From a virus (lineage: Duplodnaviria > Heunggongvirae > Uroviricota > Caudoviricetes), in the IMG/VR virus record IMGVR_UViG_2526164663_000052: DNA of 39,928 bases, one strand, 5' to 3'. The notes beneath the pieces were generated by a model. That model had not been told where the DNA came from, made no database searches, and saw only the letters and a program-made list of their open reading frames with translations. A program made the position numbers and the translations under genes. This document shows positions 3,547 to 39,082 of this stretch, piece by piece. How positions within the stretch are numbered: the stretch's first letter is position 1; each line of letters begins with the position of its first letter.

Positions 3547-4479
3547 ATGACTGATATTAACGATGTAATCAAGACCATTGATGAACTTATTGATGGCGGC
3601 GTACTGACGCAGTATGCCATCGCCAGAGAGGCGGGAATTTCCGACGGCACATTATCGGCTTTCCGTAAGGGAAAATATAAAGGCGATAACGCTGCTGTGG
3701 CTGCTTCCCTGCGTTCCTGGTATGAGAACTGGAATAAACAAAGCGCACTGCCGGAACCGCCGCAGTTTGTGGAAACGCAGACAGTCCAGGAGCTGCGCGC
3801 ACTGTTTCAGGCGGTTCGTCTGATGGGCTGTATTAACGTTATTGTGGGCGTACCGGGTGTGGGTAAAACGGCCACTGCCCGTAATTACTGCCAGGAGCAA
3901 CCAAACACCTGGATGATCACCCTGTCACCCGCGCACTCTAGCGTCACGGAGTGTCTGCTGGAGCTGGCCGATGCGCTGGGGATTGATTACACCCGCGCGA
4001 ACAAAGGGGCATTATCCCGCGCCATCCGCCGTCGCCTAATGGGAACGCGTGGACTGGTGATTGTGGATGAGGCGGATCATCTTGGTATTGACGGTCTGGA
4101 GCAACTCCGGGCAATTCAGGACGCCACGGGGATCGGGATGGTGCTTATTGGTAACCCGCGCGGATTGTTTAAAGGTGGACGCCGCGCCTTTGATGATTTA
4201 TCGCGCCTGTTCAGCCGTCTTGCCCGTACAAAACAACTTCGCAAGGCCAAAAAGGCGGATGTGCTGGCCATTGCCAGGGCGTGGGGGATCAGTGGTGAGG
4301 CCGAGCTGGCCGTCATGCAGGCTATCGCTGAAAAGCCGGGAGCGTTACGCGTTCTGACACATACGCTTAACCAGGCGTGGCTCACCGCCAGCGGTGAAGG
4401 CGCGGCGCTGACAGAAAAACATATTAATGCGGCCTTTAAAGAGGTTTATACCAACCCTGAATTACTCTCACAGGTGTGA
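3547..4479 (+). CDS. Transposition ATPase / target DNA activator, MuB-like
   Basis: 310 aa with Walker A GVPGVGKT and Walker B VIVDEADHL. Shares LPEPPQFVETQTV and KPGALR blocks with Mu B as I recall it. Confidence 0.9.
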   Translation: MTDINDVIKTIDELIDGGVLTQYAIAREAGISDGTLSAFRKGKYKGDNAAVAASLRSWYENWNKQSALPEPPQFVETQTVQELRALFQAVRLMGCINVIVGVPGVGKTATARNYCQEQPNTWMITLSPAHSSVTECLLELADALGIDYTRANKGALSRAIRRRLMGTRGLVIVDEADHLGIDGLEQLRAIQDATGIGMVLIGNPRGLFKGGRRAFDDLSRLFSRLARTKQLRKAKKADVLAIARAWGISGEAELAVMQAIAEKPGALRVLTHTLNQAWLTASGEGAALTEKHINAAFKEVYTNPELLSQV

Positions 4480-4481
4480 TT

Positions 4482-4703
4482 ATGGCGGTATTTAATATTC
4501 CTGATATTTACGGACGCTTTTACCTGGTTAATTTCGATAACGTGAAGGTGATTTCACTGGCCGAAAATAAAGAATGTGGCGATTTACTTTTTGAATTTAA
4601 TGACCGCACACGAATGGTGATATCTGCCGGACTTGATCGCGAAGGTGCGACAGACGTTTACAGCGGAATATGCCGTTCTGTTGGTGCGAAACAAGTCAGC
4701 TAA
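4482..4703 (+). CDS. Hypothetical early protein
   Basis: ORF in the early operon; ATG at 4482 follows AGGTG. The track start at 4476 is a GTG overlapping the B stop codon. Confidence 0.45.
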   Translation: MAVFNIPDIYGRFYLVNFDNVKVISLAENKECGDLLFEFNDRTRMVISAGLDREGATDVYSGICRSVGAKQVS

Positions 4704-4715
4704 ATGAGGTGTTAT

Positions 4716-4970
4716 ATGAATATGCAATCCTGCGGTAACAAAATGAATTTATTCGACTCCCTGAACAGCGCGCGCCGTCTGACCGAACTTGCCGGTGCGG
4801 TACTGGAACGCAGTAAGCGCTATCCGCAACGTTTTGCACTGAAAACCACGCCGCCGGTAGGCAACGTGCAGGGAACCGGTGAAATTGAAATCACCATACA
4901 GACCAACGGCCTGCGCCGCCGTGTGAAGGCCACCCGCATCAGCGGCTGCACGGTTTACTGGGAGGTGTGA
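4716..4970 (+). CDS. Hypothetical early protein
   Basis: ORF with ATG at 4716 preceded by GAGG; the track shows an alternative start at 4704. Confidence 0.45.
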   Translation: MNMQSCGNKMNLFDSLNSARRLTELAGAVLERSKRYPQRFALKTTPPVGNVQGTGEIEITIQTNGLRRRVKATRISGCTVYWEV

Positions 4971-5045
4971 GGTGAAAAAAATCTCATTGCATGGGCGTGG
5001 TCGAGTGGTCTTATTGAGTTTGGTTACGTCCTGCCGGAAGGTGCA

Positions 5046-5252
5046 TTGCCGATAGTTGCCGGAAAGCCTGCCACGGTACGGCATGTGATTGAGGTTATGG
5101 CGCGTCATGGACGTGATGAACAGGAGCAGTTACTGGTTCCGGGGATACCGGAAGCGGTGACGGAGGAAGAAGCCTTTAATGCCATGATTCGGTTCTGCCG
5201 TGAGGTCAGACGCCGGGTCAGTTATCCAAACAGAACGAGGACCAGAGGATGA
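5046..5252 (+). CDS. Hypothetical early protein (TTG start, weak)
   Basis: Open frame 4971..5252 with no ATG or GTG; only a TTG at 5046. Confidence 0.25.
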   Translation: MPIVAGKPATVRHVIEVMARHGRDEQEQLLVPGIPEAVTEEEAFNAMIRFCREVRRRVSYPNRTRTRG

Positions 5253-5521
5253 GTAAAGTCGTACGCATTATTTTCGAATACAAGGAGCACGTTATCCATA
5301 AAAACGCTGATGGAACAGTGCGCATGGGGGTAAGTCTGGACATACGTTCAACCGGGATAAAGCAGAAAGGTGATGGACCCGCCATGATTTTTGGGGTGGT
5401 TATGCTCGCGGAAAGCAGAGACTTTGCTGAACTTGTGGCAATGAAAGCCAGTGCGCTCATGAAAGATATGAGCATGCGTTCCGGGGTTATTAAAGGTAAT
5501 GAATTTAATCAGCAGGGGTAA
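5249..5521 (+). CDS. Hypothetical early protein, paralog 1 (MSKVVRIIFEYKEH...)
   Basis: ATG follows GAGG. Its N-terminus is shared with the next gene. Confidence 0.5.
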   Translation: MSKVVRIIFEYKEHVIHKNADGTVRMGVSLDIRSTGIKQKGDGPAMIFGVVMLAESRDFAELVAMKASALMKDMSMRSGVIKGNEFNQQG

Positions 5522-5525
5522 TTCC

Positions 5526-5819
5526 ATGAGCAAAGTACGCGTTATTTTTGAATTTAAGCATGTTTCGCATGACGAAAAACCGGCAGGCAATGACTGTGTT
5601 GAAGTGCATGAAAAGATTGGTGTGGATGTAAAAACAGAACGTGATACGAATAACAGGCCGACGTCACTCTGTGACGTTTATGCAAGTATTCTCCAGTATC
5701 ACAGTCCTGAAATTATTCAGTTTCTCTCAGCGGAATTTCAGGCATCTGTACAGGCTTTTGGGGCGGATGCCATCATTAAACGCCACCGCGTGCATAAAGC
5801 ATCAGGCACACTGCAATAA
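5526..5819 (+). CDS. Hypothetical early protein, paralog 2 (MSKVRVIFEFKH...)
   Basis: Start chosen at the internal ATG 5526 because it gives the same N-terminus as the upstream paralog. Confidence 0.5.
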   Translation: MSKVRVIFEFKHVSHDEKPAGNDCVEVHEKIGVDVKTERDTNNRPTSLCDVYASILQYHSPEIIQFLSAEFQASVQAFGADAIIKRHRVHKASGTLQ

Positions 5820-5830
5820 GGAAAAACAAA

Positions 5831-6361
5831 ATGGCTAAACGTGTTACAAAATTAAAGGCCGCAGCCGAGGCTGCACCGCAGACCCGCGAAGAAGTCAGCC
5901 GCGATATCCGTACCCTGGGCGATATTCAGCGAGAGGCGCTGCGGCTGGAAACGGCGATGAATGATGAAGTGGCAGAAATCACCGCCCGTTATACGCCGCA
6001 GATTGAAAACCTTAAAAAAGAAATCAAAGTGCTTTTTAAGGGGATTCAGGACTGGTGCAAAACCAACCGCGATGAGCTGACGAACGGCGGCAAAACCAAA
6101 ACAGCCAATCTGACCACCGGAACAGTGTCATGGCGGCTGGGAAATCCATCATGCAGCGTCAGCCGTGATGTGGAAGGTGTGATTGAAATGCTGAGCCGTA
6201 TGGGGCTTGAGCGATTCATCCGCACGAAAGAGGAAGTGAACAAGGAAGCGGTCCTGGCGGAGCCGGATGCAGTGAAAGGCATTGCCGGTATTAAGGTGAA
6301 TAAAGGCGCTGAAAGTTTTTATGTCGAGCCTTTTGAACAGGACGCCGGACTGAATAAATAA
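5831..6361 (+). CDS. gam: Gam host-nuclease inhibitor (Ku-like DNA-end binding)
   Basis: 176 aa; DELTNGGK.KTANL..G.VSWR and RFIRTK.E.NKEA blocks match Mu Gam as I recall it. Confidence 0.88.
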   Translation: MAKRVTKLKAAAEAAPQTREEVSRDIRTLGDIQREALRLETAMNDEVAEITARYTPQIENLKKEIKVLFKGIQDWCKTNRDELTNGGKTKTANLTTGTVSWRLGNPSCSVSRDVEGVIEMLSRMGLERFIRTKEEVNKEAVLAEPDAVKGIAGIKVNKGAESFYVEPFEQDAGLNK

Positions 6362-6458
6362 CACCGCATTAAATCTTTAAATATCACATCGTTTTAAGTA
6401 TGGCGCTCGCGTCAGGGGACTGCCTGCGCCTGTAAACTGAAAATAAGGAACAGGATAT

Positions 6459-7001
6459 ATGGCATATTTTTATTTCAAATTAGACCGTGTGCAGACAAAT
6501 AAATATTTCACCAAATATCAACAGACTGTTTTACCGCTACGCAACAGTATTCTTCGGGCATTACTGAAAAATACAGGCGCTGCCGGATTGCGCTTAAAGC
6601 CGTTTGCCATGGACGTAATCAGTGAGTTTTATTTTTCTGGTGCTCTGCCTGCGGGCTGGCGTAAGCGCGATGATGTGGCTTTTATCGGGGACGGACCGTG
6701 CTTTATTGCCAGACCTGATGAGTCATGCCCTGAAGGACCGGCGATTGCCGCAATGATTGAAGCCGCTGAACGCGAGTTAAGAAAGCGTCCTGATTTCCTT
6801 GTCTGGCTCTGTGAAAAGCTGGGGGTAATGAGAATCCCCTCCATGTTTAACATGGACTCCTGGTGGACCCCGTCGCTCTCCCGTGATGCCCTGTGCGTGG
6901 TGTTTAAAGTAGGCGCTTATGGCAGGGAAATAAAAGGGGGTATTCCTGAAGAATGCCAGGAGATTAAACATTCTGAATATGTGGCGCTGACGGAGGAATA
7001 A
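6459..7001 (+). CDS. Hypothetical early-region protein
   Basis: 180-aa ORF; SD AAGGAA upstream; no family recognised. Confidence 0.5.
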   Translation: MAYFYFKLDRVQTNKYFTKYQQTVLPLRNSILRALLKNTGAAGLRLKPFAMDVISEFYFSGALPAGWRKRDDVAFIGDGPCFIARPDESCPEGPAIAAMIEAAERELRKRPDFLVWLCEKLGVMRIPSMFNMDSWWTPSLSRDALCVVFKVGAYGREIKGGIPEECQEIKHSEYVALTEE

Positions 7002-7004
7002 TTC

Positions 7005-7538
7005 ATGATTGATGCAAAAGTGCTTGAAGGGGTTAAAAACTGGCTGAGTATTTACGGGCGTCTGACCTGCGGCATTCTGGCTGAAAAAATGAATATGCCG
7101 CCATCCTCGATGGTTTATTTTCTGCGTGATGCGGTCGATGCCGGGGTGCTGACGGAATGTAACGGTTTTTATGATATTCCGCGTCCCCGCCCGGTGCAGC
7201 CGGTTCGTCGCAAATGCAGCCAGGAAGGTGCGGCTGATGATGTTCAGTGGTGCAGCTTCAGAAAATCCCTGCCGTGGATTGAGGGGCATGATATTCCGTC
7301 AATGGCGTGGGAATTTGCTCAGGGCGTTCTGACCTGTGAAACCGTTTATGTGGTGGCTGAAGTTGATGAGCAGGCCATGAAAGAAGGCGTGCCCCAGTTT
7401 GTGATGGCGTATATCGACATACGCCTGGGTGTCATTATCTGCGGTTTAAGCGGCTGGAATATCACCTCGCGCGTTCTGCGTTACCTGATTGTTGACCGGA
7501 CGGCCGCGCCTGCCGGGATATCTGCGGAGGTGGCGTAA
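7005..7538 (+). CDS. Hypothetical early-region protein
   Basis: 177-aa ORF tightly packed in the operon; no family recognised. Confidence 0.5.
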   Translation: MIDAKVLEGVKNWLSIYGRLTCGILAEKMNMPPSSMVYFLRDAVDAGVLTECNGFYDIPRPRPVQPVRRKCSQEGAADDVQWCSFRKSLPWIEGHDIPSMAWEFAQGVLTCETVYVVAEVDEQAMKEGVPQFVMAYIDIRLGVIICGLSGWNITSRVLRYLIVDRTAAPAGISAEVA

Positions 7539-8053
7539 TGTTCTTTAAAACATCAAACCCTTCCGCGCTGGCCGCGTGGCAAAAATATCAGCAGGACTGC
7601 CAGAAAGTTAAGGATGAGGCAAAACGCCTTGAGGCCGTGCTGAATGTTGCGTGCCGGTCGGTATTTGTATCCGGTATCAGTGGCTTTTGTTTTAAAGGGC
7701 TGCGCTTTATGGATGACAAATATCCTTTTCATCGCGACTTATGGCGAAAACCGACTGCGTCGAATGGCTGGAGCTGCACACCGCGCACATCACGTATTCC
7801 CAAAGCCCTGCGCGTTGCCTCTGACGAACTTAACAGTCTGTGGCGTGAATATTCGCCCGTCACGTATGCCAGAACCGATGCACTGTTGTTCTGGCTGGGT
7901 ATTGATTTCTCGGCAATCATGTTTGGCCCTGTGAAGTGGTTCTGCGTTGACGATGTGATTTACCTTGAGTGCGGCGTAAAACCCGCAAATCAGAAAATGA
8001 CCGAAATTCTGTCTGATGAGTTTTATGCTGCTGAAAAGCGAGTCAGGGGGTGA
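7538..8053 (+). CDS. Hypothetical early-region protein
   Basis: 171-aa ORF, start overlapping the upstream stop. Confidence 0.5.
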   Translation: MFFKTSNPSALAAWQKYQQDCQKVKDEAKRLEAVLNVACRSVFVSGISGFCFKGLRFMDDKYPFHRDLWRKPTASNGWSCTPRTSRIPKALRVASDELNSLWREYSPVTYARTDALLFWLGIDFSAIMFGPVKWFCVDDVIYLECGVKPANQKMTEILSDEFYAAEKRVRG

Positions 8054-8056
8054 TGT

Positions 8057-8608
8057 ATGATGATTTTACAACCCATGGGGCGAAAAGGTCAGGCACCTGC
8101 TCATGTCCGTGCGTGGACACCTGAAGAAGATGCGCTGCTGATTGCGCTTTATCCATCCACCCCGGTTAAGGATATTGCTGTCAGGGTAAAAAGAAGTTTC
8201 TGGGGTGTACATAACCGGATTGTTTTATTACGCGGTACTTACCCGGAGTTGCTCAAATGCAAACGTCCAAGATTTAAACATGATGAAGATAAATTTATCC
8301 GAAAAAATGCCAGAACGATGACCGGTAAGCAAATAGGAGAATATCTGGGGCGAGACCGGGATTCTGTCCACAATCGGGCGCGATATATTGGCGTAAGCAT
8401 GAAAAAATACGGAGAATTGCTGCCCTTCACCCGTATACCTGACGATGATGTTCATCTTATTCGTGAATTACGGGATGCTGAATCACCACGACGTCTTACC
8501 TTCCGGGAAATAGGCGAGAAATTTGAATTATCCGAGAGTACGGTGAATTTTATTTATCACCATCGCCGGACTGCCGAGGACGCTGTATTACGGGAGTTAA
8601 CGCCATGA
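8057..8608 (+). CDS. Putative DNA-binding protein with three internal ~45-aa HTH-like repeats
   Basis: Repeats begin WTPEEDALLIALY, HDEDKFIRKNARTM and DDDVHLIRELRDAE; each ends with an S.HNR-type motif. The first resembles a Myb/SANT repeat. Confidence 0.5.
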   Translation: MMILQPMGRKGQAPAHVRAWTPEEDALLIALYPSTPVKDIAVRVKRSFWGVHNRIVLLRGTYPELLKCKRPRFKHDEDKFIRKNARTMTGKQIGEYLGRDRDSVHNRARYIGVSMKKYGELLPFTRIPDDDVHLIRELRDAESPRRLTFREIGEKFELSESTVNFIYHHRRTAEDAVLRELTP

Positions 8609-8790
8609 TAAAGAGACTTGTATTTTTCGCAATTTTCGTTCCGGTGTTGGGGGTTGGTTTTATATTTGCGATTACAGGAAACCTGTCCATGATGCCAGAT
8701 ATTTGGTTCTTTATCAGGATGTCGCTCTTCCTGTTTATTATGAATCTTCTTATCGACATATATATCCGTATTACTGGAAAACATAAATGA
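8605..8790 (+). CDS. Small hydrophobic (likely two-TM) protein
   Basis: 61 aa, strongly hydrophobic (FFAIFVPVLGVGFIFAI ... LFLFIMNLLIDIYI); the sequence reads as AT-rich. Confidence 0.4.
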   Translation: MIKRLVFFAIFVPVLGVGFIFAITGNLSMMPDIWFFIRMSLFLFIMNLLIDIYIRITGKHK

Positions 8791-9161
8791 GAAAAATCAC
8801 GTCCTTGTCAGAGTTACAGGAGATGAATATGAGTATTGAATTAAGATCGTCTTATGAGTATCGCAAATTTCTTATCGCCGGAGGCATGAAACCGGAAGAT
8901 GTGGAAAAAATCGTTTCTTTTATGGATAAGGAATGTGATAAGCGGGATGTGTCAGAAATTATTATGGATGACATGATTCTGGATTCAGTCGTGGCGTTAA
9001 GTCCGTTATGGATTGTGCATTCTCTTGCGGAAATTGCCAAAGGCACCGATAAACAGGCAGCTGTTGCTGCCCTTCAGACGCTTAATGAAATGCGTATATC
9101 TCCACGCCCGACATTAATACAGATGATTTTGTCCAGTATGGAGGATAAAGCAAATGAATAG
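8787..9161 (+). CDS. Hypothetical protein
   Basis: 124-aa ORF; reads as AT-rich; no family recognised. Confidence 0.45.
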   Translation: MRKITSLSELQEMNMSIELRSSYEYRKFLIAGGMKPEDVEKIVSFMDKECDKRDVSEIIMDDMILDSVVALSPLWIVHSLAEIAKGTDKQAAVAALQTLNEMRISPRPTLIQMILSSMEDKANE

Positions 9162-9351
9162 TCTACCCGCTGGATGGGCGCGCCCTCTGATGGCTAAGAA
9201 GCATCATTTTTTTAAAACTGGCGATAATATCAGTATATGTAGGCGGTGGTTATATCTGGCTCATAATCGCGAGCCGGATACATTTGAAAGCCCTGATGAC
9301 TGTGCCGAATGTCGCAGAAGACTGAATAAGGAGAAAGATAATGGACAATAG
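9154..9351 (+). CDS. Hypothetical small Cys-containing protein
   Basis: 65 aa with C..C...C..C spacing at the C-terminus; possible zinc binding. Confidence 0.35.
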   Translation: MNSLPAGWARPLMAKKHHFFKTGDNISICRRWLYLAHNREPDTFESPDDCAECRRRLNKEKDNGQ

Positions 9352-9637
9352 TTCTCTGTTGTTCTGGTGCTTATATATCACATCCTTTTTCGGCGCATTT
9401 GTTATTACCCGGTGGTTATGTCGAAAAATCATCTGCTTTTTTGATAAAAGACATCCGGTTGAACGGGCGGCTGATGCGCTCATTCAGCAGGCCATTGTGT
9501 TATATAGCGGTGAATTTTTCTGCCGGATAACAACCAGAGATGGCTGGCACATAATGATTATTCCACCAACACACCATGCCCGGTGGGATGAGGCAGAAAA
9601 GGCTTTCCATGTCCGTAAAAAGGTAAATACGGTATGA
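9341..9637 (+). CDS. Hypothetical protein with N-terminal transmembrane segment
   Basis: 98 aa; hydrophobic N-terminus LLFWCLYITSFFGAFVI. Confidence 0.4.
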   Translation: MDNSSLLFWCLYITSFFGAFVITRWLCRKIICFFDKRHPVERAADALIQQAIVLYSGEFFCRITTRDGWHIMIIPPTHHARWDEAEKAFHVRKKVNTV

Positions 9638-10143
9638 GAGGAAAACTGATATCCGCCATTCATGTGGCAAAGCGCGAGCTTGCCCTGGATGATGAGACTT
9701 ATACATCCGCGCTGCTGGCAGCCACCGGCAAAACCAGCTGCCGGGATATGTCACCGGATGAGTTATCCCGCGTGCTGGATGTTTTCAAAAAACGCGGTTT
9801 TAAAGTGCGTCAGAACCCGGTTAACCGGGCCTTAAAACCGGGTACGGTGACCGCCAAAATTCGCGCCATCTGGAAGGTGATGCACCGGCAGGGCTTTATC
9901 TCTGATGGTGCGGAAACCGCCCTTAACCGCTGGGTGAAATCGCAGACGGCCGCGCAAAACGGCGGCGAAGGTGTGGCAAACTGGCAGTGGCTGGAGCAAC
10001 ACCCCGCCCTGGCCTCAGATGTGCTGGAGCGTCTCAAGCGATGGCACCGCCGCAAAATGCTGGCCGCGATGGGAATGCCCGAACGCACGCTGATGGGGTA
10101 TGACGCCGTTTGCAGGCAGTATGAAAAATCACTTCCCCGTTAA
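9634..10143 (+). CDS. GemA-like (Mu gp16 family) regulatory protein
   Basis: 169 aa, immediately upstream of mor as in Mu. Family assignment is by position and general resemblance. Confidence 0.55.
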   Translation: MRGKLISAIHVAKRELALDDETYTSALLAATGKTSCRDMSPDELSRVLDVFKKRGFKVRQNPVNRALKPGTVTAKIRAIWKVMHRQGFISDGAETALNRWVKSQTAAQNGGEGVANWQWLEQHPALASDVLERLKRWHRRKMLAAMGMPERTLMGYDAVCRQYEKSLPR

Positions 10144-10147
10144 CTCC

Positions 10148-10178
10148 AAATCCCGCCACAACGCGGGATTTTTATTTT
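10148..10178 (+). terminator. Rho-independent terminator after the gemA-like gene
   Basis: Stem ATCCCGC / loop CACAAC / stem GCGGGAT, followed by TTTTTATTTT. Confidence 0.6.
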
Positions 10179-10212
10179 AAACTTACCGGGAACGCGAGAA
10201 CCGGAGGCTGAT

Positions 10213-10638
10213 ATGGCAGAAACTCAGATGAGCATGTTTGGTGGTGACAGTGAGCAACTGCACGCCCTTATCGACCGCCTTGATGACATCCCTGATGATG
10301 TTCTCAAAAAGAACTGGCCGCGGACCCTGTCAGAACTGGTTGAAGTCACCGGCGCAGAACTTCAGCGTCAGGGGATTGAGCCGGTACTGGCCGGTAAACT
10401 GGCACGCAAGGTGGCTGCGGCTCAGGCAGCCTATATGGGCGGACGGGGTTATTACCTGCCGGTCGGGGAATCTCTCTTTGCCGAGCTGCGAAACAATGAG
10501 ATATTTTCGCGCTGGGACCGGGGCGAGAAAATTGAATCCCTTCGCCGCCATTACCGGATGTCAGAAACCCAGATTTATACCGTCATACGCGAACAGCGCC
10601 GTCTGCATCTGGCAAGAACGCAACCGCCACTTTTCTGA
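10213..10638 (+). CDS. mor: Mor/C-family transcriptional activator
   Basis: 141 aa; C-terminal HTH region (YRMSETQIYTVIRE) and overall layout resemble Mu Mor/C. Only one homolog is present. Confidence 0.75.
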   Translation: MAETQMSMFGGDSEQLHALIDRLDDIPDDVLKKNWPRTLSELVEVTGAELQRQGIEPVLAGKLARKVAAAQAAYMGGRGYYLPVGESLFAELRNNEIFSRWDRGEKIESLRRHYRMSETQIYTVIREQRRLHLARTQPPLF

Positions 10639-10709: not shown

Positions 10710-11210
10710 ATGCCAAAACTCCCCGCACCACTGCGTAAAAAGCTGATTGCCCTTGTTCTGGCCGGTGCCGGGACGTTCACGATTGCCACGCATTACACCG
10801 GTTACTGGGAAGGGAAAGAAAACTCCACGTATATCGATCCCACCGGTACACCCACCATCTGTTACGGCCATACCGGCCCGGATGTGAAACCGGGTATGAC
10901 CCTGACAGATGAAGAATGCCTGGAACTACTGGAAAAGGACATGAAATGGGCCTTTGCGGCCATTGATCGGCGTGTTCAGGTGCCGCTTACCCGTGGTCAG
11001 ACGGTGGCGCTGGCTTCGTGGATCTTCTGGGCCGGTGAAACGAACTTTCGCAACTCCACGCTTCTGCGCCTGATCAATGCCGGGCAGATGCCCGCGTCCT
11101 GTAAGCAGTATATCCGCTGGATTTATTCAAAGGGGGTGAAACTCCCCGGCCTTGAGGCCCGCCGTTCGGCGGATGAATGGTTATGTCGCTACGACTTGCC
11201 GAAAGTCTGA
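10710..11210 (+). CDS. SAR-type endolysin (GH24 lysozyme)
   Basis: N-terminal signal-anchor LIALVLAGAGTFTIA, then a lysozyme core (YWEGKENSTYIDPTGTPTICYGHTG ... FRNSTLLRLIN) resembling phage P21-type SAR endolysins. Confidence 0.85.
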   Translation: MPKLPAPLRKKLIALVLAGAGTFTIATHYTGYWEGKENSTYIDPTGTPTICYGHTGPDVKPGMTLTDEECLELLEKDMKWAFAAIDRRVQVPLTRGQTVALASWIFWAGETNFRNSTLLRLINAGQMPASCKQYIRWIYSKGVKLPGLEARRSADEWLCRYDLPKV

Positions 11211-37827: not shown

Positions 37828-37874
37828 GATTGCATGAGAAAGGCATCAACAACAAAGCAGGAGGTTATGCGGCC

Positions 37875-38075
37875 ATGTATCGAAACATACGGTGCCGACA
37901 CTGCAATAAGCTACTGGCACGGGCCAGTTTCAGTTATCTGGAAGTAAAATGTCCGCGCTGTAAAACCCTCAATCAAATCACATCTCCGAGCGCCACAGAG
38001 CACCCCACATACACAAGGAAATCCTGTCGTGGGGAACAGAAAGCAAGTCACATCCCGTATCATCAGCACGCCTGA
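37875..38075 (+). CDS. com: Com, zinc-finger translational activator of mom
   Basis: [14 protein letters not shown]...KCPRCK matches Mu Com (M..IRC.NCNKLL...RCPRCK) as I recall it; overlaps the start of mom. Confidence 0.8.
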
Positions 38076-38766
38076 ACTTATTCGCTATAACGACAATATC
38101 GTTGGTTATGGCTCCCGTGAGTTGCGGGTTGAGACAATAAGTTGCTGGCTGGCCAGACTGGTTATCGTCAATAAACATTACAGCCACCGTTTCGTAAATA
38201 ATTCCTACCTTCATCTGGGTATATTTTCAGAACGGGAACTTGTTGGCGTAATGCAATGGGGTTACGCCCTTAACCCAAACAGTGGTGCACGCGTCGTAAC
38301 GGGTACGCAGAACCGAGAATATATGGAGCTTAACCGGCTATGGATGCATGACTGTATGCCGAGAAACTCCGAATCAAGGGCAATCAGTTACGCGCTCAAG
38401 CTAATCAGGCAGCTTTATCCGCAGGTACAGTGGGTTCAGTCGTTTGCAGATGAGCGTTGTGGCTGTCTTGGTGTCGTGTATCAGGCAAGCAATTTTGATT
38501 ATGTAGGCAGCCATGAATCAACATTCTATGAACTTGATGGCGAGTGGTATCACGAGATTTGCAGGAGTGCCATTAAACGAGGCGGACAACGAGGTGAACA
38601 TCTGAGGGCTAATATCGACAGAGCCAGTGTGCATAAGTTCCGACAGTTTCGTTACATCCGGTTTCTGAACAAGAGGGCCAGAAAACGCCTCAACACAAAG
38701 CTATTCAAAGTCCAGCCTTACCCAAAACCACAAACAGTTAAAACTGGTTTGAAAGAGAGTGAATGA
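38029..38766 (+). CDS. mom: Mom DNA-modification protein (anti-restriction adenine modification)
   Basis: 245 aa from a GTG start overlapping com. It occupies the Mu mom position at the right end, immediately after com. Confidence 0.85.
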
Positions 38767-38812
38767 GCGCTTAAAAACTCATTCTAAAACTCAAAAGAAA
38801 AGCGCCGATTTA

Positions 38813-38880
38813 GTATCAAATAAGTTGCGTATCGGCGTTTTTCAGCGGTATCAAATGAAATGCAAATCGGTATCAAAAAA
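38813..38880 (-). repeat. Right end with three GGTATCAAA motifs (38813-38820, 38848-38856, 38869-38877), inverted relative to the left end
   Basis: Seen directly; mirrors the left-end motifs. The terminal 12 bp CGCCGCGCTATA resembles the Mu right end as I recall it. Confidence 0.55.
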
Positions 38881-38896
38881 ATCGCCGCGCTATATG

Positions 38897-39082
38897 CTGG
38901 CGTTGTTGTTGTGTCTGTTTTCCGGCGGGTTAGCGATGTATGGCTACCTGCGCTGGTTACGCAATGAAAAAGCGATGCGTCTGAAAGAGGACCTGCCCTA
39001 CACCAACAGCTTATTAATCATTAGCTTAATATTGATGGTCGTGGCGGTGATCGTTATGGGACTGGTGTTGTATGCCGGATAG
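38897..39082 (+). pseudogene. yidH: 3' part of disrupted yidH
   Basis: In frame LALLLCLFSGGLAMYGYLRWLRNEKAMRLKEDLPYTNSLLIISLILMVVAVIVMGLVLYAG, continuing the protein that starts at 1..165. Confidence 0.75.

Follow-up and report, generated by a model that had tools for sequence, protein, structure and literature searches.

What are the eight small genes that lie between gam and a gemA-like gene in the early region of a Mu-like prophage, and do the AT-rich genes at the end of this array betray a recent arrival, as had been proposed from a sequence-only reading? The window, i.e., the whole stretch of 39,928 nucleotides analyzed, corresponds to a Mu-like prophage that has integrated into yidH, which is split at both window ends, with Com/Mom located at the right end. 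The block under study, positions 6459-9637, matches E. coli FORC_028 and O157:H7 PA20 at 100% identity and is carried by 233 of 5426 complete genomes; the host is of the Shiga-toxin type of E. coli. Within the early operon of this transposable prophage, the block is probably the promoter-distal, dispensable part, composed of a conserved backbone and two exchange slots.

The array of eight tightly packed ORFs (o1-o8) is located on one strand exactly where it had been described, between the Pfam Gam and the Pfam GemA gene. The left flank, gam (5831-6361; Phage_Mu_Gam, E 3.8e-41), encodes a host-nuclease inhibitor with 57% identity to Mu Gam, and the right flank is the gemA-like gene (9634-10143; Pfam GemA, E 4e-30); these and all features described below are on the plus strand. 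Each of the eight ORFs is preceded by a Shine-Dalgarno-like (SD) motif 6-10 nt upstream, and adjacent ORFs either touch or share 1-11 nt. Inside the block, neither promoter nor terminator signals exceeded shuffled expectation. An intrinsic-terminator-like hairpin at 10148-10171 (9-bp stem with five G-C pairs, then a T-run), the putative end of the early transcription unit, is the only strong plus-strand terminator from ner to this point. From the SD sites, the overlapping stops and starts, the absence of internal signals and the terminator after gemA, the block can be read as one operon, and its co-transcription is presumed by analogy with Mu. After induction or infection, its genes would be transcribed from the early promoter, for which a consensus match at chance level only exists at 998-1025, and made alongside transposase, MuB and Gam, with the early transcript ending at the 10148-10171 hairpin.

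The semi-essential early region of Mu, from gam to gemA with gp11, gp12, gp13, gp14 and gp15, occupies the same early-operon position and strand, and it shares with this prophage a low-GC slot of small genes directly upstream of gemA. To our knowledge, no function has been assigned to Mu gp11-gp15. The sequence-only reading had recognized no family among the eight ORFs; all of them, however, match PHROG families, and these are catalogued yet uncharacterized. The backbone gene o2 (7005-7538; 177 aa) is the Mu gp11 orthologue (67% identity to Mu_11; Pfam Gp11_C, score 135.5 bits, cutoff 27), found in 31 of 31 loci with a dN/dS of 0.19, and o3 (7538-8053; 171 aa) is the orthologue of Mu gp12, with 55% identity. 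The lineage-specific o4 (8057-8608; 183 aa, pI 9.9), with which the low-GC tract starts, is a predicted DNA-binding protein with helix-turn-helix (Myb/SANT-like) modules. It matches phrog_323 'transcriptional regulator' (E 6e-59) and several helix-turn-helix Pfam families, all under their gathering scores; RefSeq names it DNA-binding, AsnC or SANT/Myb-like, and partial homologues are located within the DNA-binding portions of HNH endonuclease and methylase genes from phages. A full-length homologue occurs in a Citrobacter phage, and a 72%-identical allele exists. A reading of o4 as three repeats is weakly supported (z about 1-2). DNA binding is proposed for o4 and, possibly, for o2. In Mu, unlike in this prophage, no gene separates gam from gp11, and o4 is missing.

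In every related locus of the E. coli lineage that is long enough to cover them, gam, o2, o3, o4 and gemA are present, whereas o1 and o5-o8 vary. The backbones of these relatives are >89% identical, with three states between gam and gp11 (slot A) and six gene sets between o4 and gemA (slot B). Slot A is anchored by the gam-distal intergenic element and the 5' end of gp11. This element (6362-6458) contains a GGCGC...GCGCC inverted repeat, and its core is nearly invariant in this window, in relatives with or without o1, in Mu and in SfMu; its RNA fold is not exceptional (z 0.12). The cargo of slot A is o1 (6459-7001; 180 aa; phrog_2260, E 1e-74), a divergent DUF5420-family protein with 40% identity to SfMu_11, which carries this family name in RefSeq. 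A 25%-identical allele in relatives matches Pfam DUF5420 at 6.6e-14, and the relative P0077 does so at 4.3e-11. The gene is absent from Mu and some relatives, and it has only 7 representatives among 1.84e9 proteins.

Slot B is anchored by the 3' end of o4 and the 5' end of gemA, and homology with all of its variants resumes at ~9658. Six gene contents with breakpoints at gene boundaries were found in 30 related loci, a biased sample, mostly STEC, so that cassette frequencies are not population estimates. Breakpoints recur at 8614, 8797/8816, 9338 and 9658, and also at 6432/6476 and 6963/6997; in both slots, genes are gained, lost or replaced singly via recombination at gene boundaries. One such insertion/deletion point is the o5-o6 junction (8787-8828), where relatives hold c75, a DUF551-like gene and cc120, and where the shared ATGAGAAAAAT start has been kept here as the fossil start codon of a lost cassette. 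The ATG at 8787 was considered as the start of o6 and rejected, being the leftover start (MRKI...) of the cassette found in relatives, with its SD decayed from GGGAGG to GGAAAA; the most likely start is 8829 (AGGAG + 6 nt), as in RefSeq. Together with the absence from Mu of o1 and o4-o8, six of the eight genes, this exchange bears out the suggestion that the block is an accessory, exchangeable section of the Mu-like early region. The o6-o7 pair and o1 occur in ~92% of E. coli carriers and are close to fixed in this lineage rather than freely variable.

In the present window, slot B holds o5, o6, o7 and o8. The first (8605-8790; 61 aa), in agreement with the original description of a two-TM peptide, has two hydrophobic spans (19-mers beginning at residues 1-12 and 32-40 by hydropathy) and is predicted to form a TM hairpin. 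It has a weak match to phrog_19804, occurs in 109 of the 233 block-carrying E. coli genomes, and is found among phage records only in the Mu-like insert of LC727881. The product of o6 (8829-9161; 110 aa, pI 4.8; phrog_1988, E 5e-44) is a soluble acidic protein with 37% identity to SfMu_14 and to Yersinia Mu-like phage genes at the same position; Pfam and PDB searches gave no match. The small protein o7 (9154-9351; 65 aa) had been described as a Cys-cluster protein: there is indeed a Cys motif, but it comprises only three cysteines (C29, C50 and C53) plus an invariant His18, and o7 may bind zinc. Its family (PHROG 2358 / Pbunavirus SN ORF85) is common to virulent Pbunavirus and Wifcevirus phages, has no characterized member, and keeps the core G-W-x2-P ... 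H-x-F ... S-x-C ... C-x2-C invariant at 30-45% identity. These homologues are small proteins in early-gene arrays, and the Wifcevirus domain forms the N-terminal part of a 177-aa protein. On comparison, o7 is neither 14-1 gp12, a transcription inhibitor, nor YIP. The last gene, o8 (9341-9637; 98 aa; phrog_17269; only 7 clusters among 5.8e9 sequences), has the single N-terminal hydrophobic span expected of the N-terminal-TM protein first noted, a predicted anchor followed by a ~67-aa soluble domain in two divergent forms. Identity to the alternative allele is 90% for aa 1-31 but 31% for aa 32-98, and a ~250 bp patch is exchanged inside o8 between 100% identical flanks; the allele of this window occurs in 163 genomes.

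With respect to function, the cassettes may be non-essential host-takeover or conflict factors fitted to particular hosts and competitors. In such a scheme, o5 and o8 would target an envelope protein or an incoming phage from the inner membrane, with o7 as a small zinc-stabilized binder of a component conserved among gamma-proteobacteria and o6 as a soluble acidic protein-binding factor. An anti-defence or exclusion role is conjecture. The eight ORFs gave no match to a known defence family, toxin or solved structure in PADLOC, NCBIfam, Pfam families of known function and PDB sequences, and two structure models had no PDB fold match. As one tentative option, perhaps one chance in several, some or all of o5-o8 may be counter-defence genes that block restriction, CRISPR, abortive infection or other immunity early in infection. 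They are small, variable, low in GC, narrowly distributed and presumably expressed early, in the same operon as the known nuclease inhibitor Gam; the two forms of the o8 soluble domain, so divergent within identical flanks, are as expected for a protein tracking a variable partner, and o7 is common to temperate and virulent phages, in early-gene arrays. Against this stands the lack of sequence or fold similarity of o5-o8 to any described protein in the searches run. The o6 protein is merely mildly acidic (net charge about -6) and thus is not a DNA mimic of the Ocr/ArdA type. In Mu-like phages of Pseudomonas, anti-CRISPRs do reside in a plasticity region with low GC, but this region belongs to the late rather than the early genes (PMC4378225).

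Somewhat less probable is that o5 and o8 serve as superinfection-exclusion or envelope-remodeling factors, blocking the entry of competing-phage DNA or altering division or the cell wall in lytic growth, although their predicted hairpin and N-terminal anchor would suit such roles, and o5 is optional and o8 dimorphic among relatives. T4 Imm/Sp and HK97 gp15 are models for exclusion-type action, yet o5 and o8 have no homology to known exclusion proteins, their PHROG categories are 'unknown', and their topology is predicted by hydropathy alone. A precedent is the Pbunavirus YIP, a very small early peptide with a predicted TM helix that binds and acts on a host inner-membrane enzyme (PMC8085984); the analogy with o5 (61 aa) is functional only, YIP being Pseudomonas-specific, ~32 aa long and without sequence similarity. 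Low-level Pe transcription reported in Mu lysogens (PMC3820752) could express both genes from the prophage, but they are distant from the repressor and without a promoter of their own, so that expression in the lysogen would be weak at best.

The view that the last four genes are a single block newly acquired by the prophage from an AT-rich donor is largely contradicted and now improbable. Its starting point stands: region 8605-9637 has 41.5% GC versus 53.4% for the whole window, placing it in the lowest 0.75% of same-size windows, and GC3 is 0.39-0.46 versus 0.55-0.65 in neighboring genes. Codon adaptation to late genes is low (z = -3.3, -1.1, -2.6 and -2.2 for o5, o6, o7 and o8), and o5 and o8 are almost confined to E. 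coli Mu-like prophages. Hence GC and codon usage both depart from the phage backbone, as had been anticipated, and kil, sot, arm and lig have no match among the ORFs. The AT-rich tract, however, comprises five genes (o4-o8), not four, and o4 is equally atypical (46.0% GC, GC3 0.40, z = -3.4) yet fixed in the lineage. In Mu (46.9%) and SfMu (46.0%), too, GC reaches a local minimum in the equivalent slot, so that AT-richness is no proof of recent acquisition, and every slot B variant has 40-47% GC. The homologue of o6 at the matching position in SfMu and Yersinia Mu-like phages argues for long residence. Each of the four genes assorts on its own: unrelated phages carry o7 by itself, o8 is found without o6 and o7, o6 without o7 and o8, and o5 is optional. 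They are independent cassettes, not a co-inherited system. The gene arrangement of this window, moreover, resembles a deletion derivative of a longer one. It follows from the Mu and SfMu minima, the GC range of the variants and the SfMu homologue that low GC is a long-standing property of the slot B gene pool.

That any of o5, o7 and o8 might be non-functional, a random or decaying ORF within a spacer, as their shortness (61-98 aa), an AT-richness that lets random ORFs run longer, and frameshifted copies in a few relatives (an o5 frameshift in L013, the P0065 variant of o8) could suggest, is very improbable, since each has an SD site, a dN/dS of 0.15-0.26, a polymorphism ratio far under neutral and a RefSeq annotation, and the motifs of o7 are unchanged across genera and phage types. 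All cassette genes are constrained protein-coding genes. Substitutions among relatives of the block are mainly synonymous, and against the most divergent ungapped allele, dN/dS is 0.13-0.29 for o2-o8 (0.15 for o5, 0.16 for o6) and 0.80, from only 23 differences, for o1. The nonsynonymous/synonymous polymorphism ratio is 0.4-1.1 in all genes versus a neutral expectation of ~3.3 from site counts. Of seven antisense ORFs examined, three, among them the longest with 170 aa, have stops or lost starts in close relatives.

Viewed as a backbone with two exchange slots, the block resembles several known systems. The Mu-type cassettes found in some relatives are a gp13-like zinc ribbon and a gene resembling gp14. 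In Shigella phage SfMu, and also in Yersinia vB_YpM_*, relatives of o1 (ORF11, 40%) and o6 (ORF14, 37%) are found at the same map positions; both ORFs are absent from Mu and D108 (PMC4406740), and they have no reported function. SfMu retains Mu-type gp13 and gp14 cassettes and lacks o4, o5, o7 and o8. Like the block, the lambdoid nin/exo-xis regions and morons are arrays of small, closely packed, dispensable genes present in only some family members. Classical morons carry their own promoter and terminator, in contrast to the block, which has no such signals above chance. The lambdoid arrays were discussed with regard to Mu-like phages of Pseudomonas aeruginosa (Cazares et al. 2014, PMC4378225), whose short accessory ORFs (34-100 codons) are found at fixed sites, for the most part in the left arm, in plasticity regions that form GC valleys, patchily common to otherwise syntenic genomes, and in which no recombinase target was recognized. 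There is no sequence homology between these regions and the block, where the exchange points map to gene boundaries and, within o8, to one intragenic patch. Positions 6459-9637 thus appear as an ordinary phage accessory region, a new example of a known sort whose gene functions can so far be proposed by inference, and it is reasonable, but unproven, to regard it as a plausible place to seek host-takeover or anti-defence genes.

The window holds a Mu-like transposable prophage that runs from a repressor-like gene through ner, the transposase gene, MuB and five small ORFs to gam, with Com-like and Mom-like genes at the right end (37830–38766). Halves of yidH are found at both window ends, then yidG and yidF; the element therefore spans roughly 170–38,900 and interrupts yidH. 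The N-terminal 55 codons of yidH lie within 1–177 at the left end, and its C-terminal part is fused into a right-end ORF (38759–39082). The block under study is flanked by gam (5831–6361, plus strand; Pfam Gam, E = 3.8e-41) and a gemA-like gene (9634–10143, plus strand; Pfam GemA, E = 4e-30), on the transposase strand and downstream of ner, A and B, which is the placement of a Mu-type early region. Over 3.9 kb around the block the sequence is 100% identical to that of E. coli FORC_028 and O157:H7 PA20, and the same stretch occurs within Mu-like elements sitting inside Stx phages. To our knowledge, the gam–gemA interval is still described as 'hypothetical proteins' despite decades of Mu research.

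The sequence-only reading had placed eight tightly packed ORFs between these two genes (6459–9637), and they are confirmed at those coordinates; every ORF has a Shine–Dalgarno-like motif, and neighbours abut or overlap by 1–11 nt. They are denoted o1 to o8 in map order. Seven starts stand as first proposed; that of o6, put at 8787, is moved to 8829, preceded by AGGAG plus 6 nt and also used by RefSeq. Measured against the most divergent ungapped allele, dN/dS is 0.13–0.29 for o2–o8 and 0.80 for o1, the latter from only 23 differences, and the ratio of nonsynonymous to synonymous polymorphisms is 0.4–1.1 in all genes, versus about 3.3 expected from site counts under neutrality. Of seven antisense ORFs put to the test, three are broken in close relatives, and the longest (170 aa) is one of these. 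The eight ORFs behave as genes, and coding constraint on them is demonstrated.

The only strong plus-strand terminator, a 9-bp hairpin with a T-run at 10148–10171, comes right after gemA, and none lies inside the block. Between 5800 and 10800, four promoter-like and five terminator-like sites were counted, fewer than the 6.7 and 5.6 averaged over shuffled sequence, and no cassette is bracketed by any of them; an Rfam scan of the whole window returned no family. By analogy with Mu, the eight genes would be co-transcribed and translated from a single early polycistronic RNA, together with the transposition proteins and Gam. In Mu, the early transcript is produced at a low level in lysogens too (PMC3820752).

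Two observations concern the edges of this operon. The intergenic stretch following gam (6362–6458) is better conserved than the adjoining genes among this prophage, its relatives, Mu and SfMu; its core reads TTTTAAnTATGGCGC...CGTCAGGnGA...GCGCCTG and includes an inverted repeat. RNA folding of this element is no better than that of shuffled sequence, and it could serve to bind a protein or to anchor recombination. Beyond gemA, the terminator at 10148–10171 parts the early operon from the only Mor/C-family activator gene (10213–10638) between gemA and the lysozyme gene (10710–11210); its product shows 39% identity to Mu C versus 27% to Mu Mor. The Mu middle-operon genes gp18–gp20 are absent. 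With a terminator between this activator and the early operon, regulation here may depart from the Mor-then-C cascade of Mu.

The organization of the block emerged from a comparison of 30 loci carrying both o4 and gemA (RefSeq E. coli, IMG/VR and an insert in a Stx phage, the window included). Whereas gam, o2, o3, o4 and gemA are present in all of them, o1 and o5–o8 are missing from some otherwise intact relatives, an indirect hint that they may be dispensable for lytic growth in the laboratory. The variable genes occupy two slots, slot A between gam and o2 and slot B between o4 and gemA. Slot A exists in three states, holding o1, its DUF5420 allele or nothing, and it is empty in Mu as well. 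Slot B has six gene contents. The window's own set, o5 to o8, is found at 10 loci; a Mu-like set of a DUF551-like gene, a zinc ribbon, a gp14-like gene and a reverse-strand 79-aa gene at 7; and a DUF551-like gene followed by the cassette cc120, o6, o7 and o8 at 5. A DUF551-like gene accompanies a truncated o6 and a reverse-strand DUF2513 gene at 3 loci and o8 only at another 3, and the longest arrangement (o5, the cassette c75, DUF551-like, cc120, o6, o7, o8) occurs at 2. With genes replaced or absent among syntenic relatives and a composition off that of the backbone, this is indeed the accessory portion of a Mu-like early region, open to exchange, and to that extent the interpretation in the sequence-only reading is supported.

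Homology breakpoints recur at identical positions across loci. In slot B they fall at 8614 (stop of o4 and start of o5), 8797/8816 (the o5–o6 spacer), 9338 (the o7/o8 junction) and 9658 (24 nt inside gemA), and in slot A at 6432/6476 and 6963/6997. The mosaic structure, the exchange points and the independence of the cassettes are directly observed. At the o5–o6 junction of the window, the o6 leader is joined to what is left of the c75 cassette, its initial 11 nt, and the ATG at 8787 is the fossil start codon of that cassette; as this start is retained with a decayed Shine–Dalgarno motif, the window's arrangement seems to have arisen from the longest one by deletion. Occupancy also varies from cassette to cassette: among 5426 complete E. 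coli genomes, the whole 3.9-kb stretch was found in 233, o1 in 214, o6–o7 in 214 (only 36 records at ≥ 99% identity), the window's o8 allele in 163 and o5 in 109.

The DUF2513 gene (136 aa, reverse strand; L006 3768–4178, also in loci L007 and L031) overlaps the 3′ end of the truncated o6. It and the 79-aa gene of the Mu-like set are the only slot B cassettes on the opposite strand, and because of this orientation the DUF2513 gene could be expressed from the prophage. A third variable site lies between gemA and the Mor/C-family gene. Empty in the window (10144–10212), it holds in relatives an IS4-type transposase or low-GC (39–42%) reverse-strand genes of 113 or 140 aa (L029 7103–8621; L026 6685–7406; L017 2560–3356; L009 3942–4481), which could likewise be prophage-expressed.

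The base composition of the block calls for a different explanation from the one originally offered. The last four genes had been described as AT-rich, and indeed 8605–9637 has 41.5% GC versus 53.4% window-wide, placing it in the lowest 0.75% of windows of the same size; the tract begins one gene earlier, however, at o4. Codon adaptation, scored against 21 long late genes, is low for four genes, with z values of −3.4 for o4, −3.3 for o5, −2.6 for o7 and −2.2 for o8; o6 scores −1.1 and o1 −1.6, and codon usage in o2, o3, gam and gemA is backbone-typical. The AT-richness had been taken as a sign of recent acquisition, a conclusion that comparison does not support: every slot B variant has 40–47% GC, and the equivalent interval is a local GC minimum in Mu (46.9%, versus 52–55% in the flanks) and SfMu (46.0%). 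Low GC therefore typifies the gene pool that uses slot B and carries no date stamp. The small genes upstream of gam (4476–5819) are low in GC as well (42% in e1, 45% in e4 and 43% in e5), and since alleles of e4 and e5 in relatives share only 62–82% identity, another variable zone between MuB and gam is suggested. A tblastn search of 4476–5819 for a homologue of Mu kil gave no clear match.

The ORFs had been thought to lack any recognizable family, which proved incorrect: every one of the eight has a PHROG match, for seven to a family whose function is unknown. Counterparts in Mu exist for two only, o2 (7005–7538), which corresponds to gp11 (67% identity; Pfam Gp11_C, 135.5 bits at a cutoff of 27), and o3, which corresponds to gp12 (55% identity); none was found for o1 or o4–o8. 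An N-terminal winged helix in o2 received no support beyond an HTH_10 match at E = 0.27. At the gp12 position of SfMu (7443–7956; L036 1944–2457) there is an unannotated gap; in translation it shows a homologue of gp12 spread over more than one frame, so that either the gene is frameshifted or the published sequence contains an error.

SfMu (with ORF11) and Yersinia Mu-like phages have, at the same map position, homologues that share 40% identity with o1 (6459–7001). The SfMu protein is named DUF5420 by RefSeq; o1 itself does not match Pfam DUF5420 (PF17457) at E ≤ 0.1, and scores above the 26-bit cutoff come from its allele of 25% identity (52.6 bits) and from P0077, a relative of 31% identity (43.4 bits). 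A distant paralogy of o1 and o3, proposed from their similar length and terminal motifs, is unsupported, the profile–profile probability being 0.3 in both of two comparisons. In an exact-sequence look-up the unrelated o1 and o2 fell into one 90%-identity cluster, probably a clustering artefact that arose from an assembly in which the gene call was fused or read through.

The basic protein o4 (pI 9.9) matches phrog_323, 'transcriptional regulator', at E = 6e-59, and has twelve Pfam matches at E ≤ 0.1, mostly of helix-turn-helix type, the best (AsnC-type; E = 1e-4, 22.4 bits) being below the cutoff of 27. RefSeq names it DNA-binding, AsnC or SANT/Myb-like, and phage genes for HNH endonucleases and methylases contain partial homologues of it in their DNA-binding parts. 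Presumably o4 would bind DNA, and perhaps o2 as well. Three internal repeats in o4 are suggestive at best (pairwise z of 1.2–2.1).

Among the slot B genes, o5 and o8 had been recognized as a 61-aa peptide with two transmembrane spans and a protein with an N-terminal transmembrane segment, and hydropathy prediction agrees; both presumably act in the inner membrane. They belong to PHROG 19804 and 17269, respectively, each annotated 'unknown function'. The o8 protein (98 aa) belongs to a very small family of 7 clusters and one phage record. Such small counts, for o3 and o1 too, are best taken as lower bounds, given how many more records tblastn added for o7 to those of the word-indexed protein search. 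The o8 protein is dimorphic: at loci where o5–o7 are 100% identical to the window, residues 1–31 share 90% identity and residues 32–98 only 31% (51% at the nucleotide level), and in gemA identity is back to 87–100%. Acidic o6 (110 aa, pI 4.8) shares 37% identity with SfMu ORF14 and would be a soluble binder. SfMu ORF11 and ORF14 have been listed as missing from Mu and D108 (PMC4406740).

The 65-aa protein o7 has four conserved putative metal ligands with a CxxC knuckle, as expected for a zinc ribbon or treble clef. In six divergent homologues H18, C29, C50 and C53 never vary, nor does a GW..P motif, and the predicted C-terminal helix begins with the CxxC; no known zinc-finger family or fold was matched, and no fold relative was detected in the PDB. 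While the word-indexed search returned just 17 clusters, all enterobacterial, 316 phage records proved to carry the domain when searched by tblastn, and 289 of these are Pseudomonas Pbunavirus; one example, SN ORF85, lies within an array of small early genes. In Wifcevirus the domain forms the N-terminus of a 177-aa protein, and where o7 occurs in phages of Citrobacter and Buttiauxella that belong to other types, its neighbours are unrelated to o6 or o8. The presence of o7 in virulent phages of both Pseudomonas and E. coli argues for a conserved target, and we infer a small zinc-stabilized binder of a target shared among gamma-proteobacteria. It is not one of the known Pbunavirus early effectors: the transcription inhibitor 14-1 gp12 is a 310-aa DUF6011 protein and YIP a 32-aa transmembrane peptide, and neither is homologous.

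The closest concept is that of the 'regions of genomic plasticity' in Pseudomonas Mu-like phages, where short ORFs occupy fixed sites, mostly in the left arm and in GC valleys, one region carries anti-CRISPRs, and no recombinase target was recognized (PMC4378225). Lambdoid phages have regions of a similar kind in nin and exo-xis. Morons in the strict sense are ruled out, the cassettes having no promoter or terminator of their own.

As to function, it is possible, if far from assured, that at least one AT-rich cassette encodes an undescribed effector of host takeover or counter-defence with a fold or mechanism absent from solved structures. The roles proposed above may come down to counter-defence, exclusion or host shut-off. 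Structure prediction contributed little. Searches of the PDB with single sequences (o1, o2, o3, o4, o6) and with profiles (families of o7, o3 and o1) gave nothing meaningful, NCBIfam nothing useful, and a BFVD fold search only uncharacterized viral proteins. The best candidates are o8 and o7, ranked in this order and ahead of o5 and o6: o8 since the soluble domain of a membrane-anchored protein has been swapped for a 31%-identical version in otherwise identical prophages, and o7 since a 65-aa His/Cys3 protein, for which the PDB showed no fold relative, is conserved in virulent phages (Pbunavirus, Wifcevirus) as well as in Mu-like prophages, which are temperate. That one or more cassettes serve specifically in counter-defence is doubtful; the anti-CRISPRs of the Pseudomonas phages offer a precedent in kind, no described anti-defence family was matched via Pfam, PHROG, NCBIfam or PDB, and the only PADLOC match is a weak one of o4 to a homing-endonuclease model (E = 0.008). 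Exclusion at the membrane or interference with the envelope is an unlikely reading. The predicted spans of o5 and o8 would suit it, and a precedent exists in the YIP peptides of Pbunavirus, tiny, early and transmembrane, which act on an enzyme of the host's inner membrane to which they bind (PMC8085984), o5 resembling YIP by functional analogy and not by homology; PHROG matches revealed no homology of o5 or o8 to a known exclusion protein. Literature searches brought up no papers on the RefSeq accessions, DUF5420, PF25754 or PF26885, and general statements only on Mu early genes.

The analysis tells apart the genes that are conserved (gp11, gp12 and the presumed helix-turn-helix protein) and those that are exchangeable, with exchange points at gene boundaries, and shows that AT-richness belongs to the slot. 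For now, this is an accessory module of an ordinary kind, of value as a lead rather than as a discovery. Mu-like prophages are frequent in Shiga-toxin-producing E. coli, and this very block resides in 233 complete E. coli genomes. Should the host target of o7 prove to be conserved, this would also be relevant to therapeutic Pseudomonas phages, hundreds of which have this domain.
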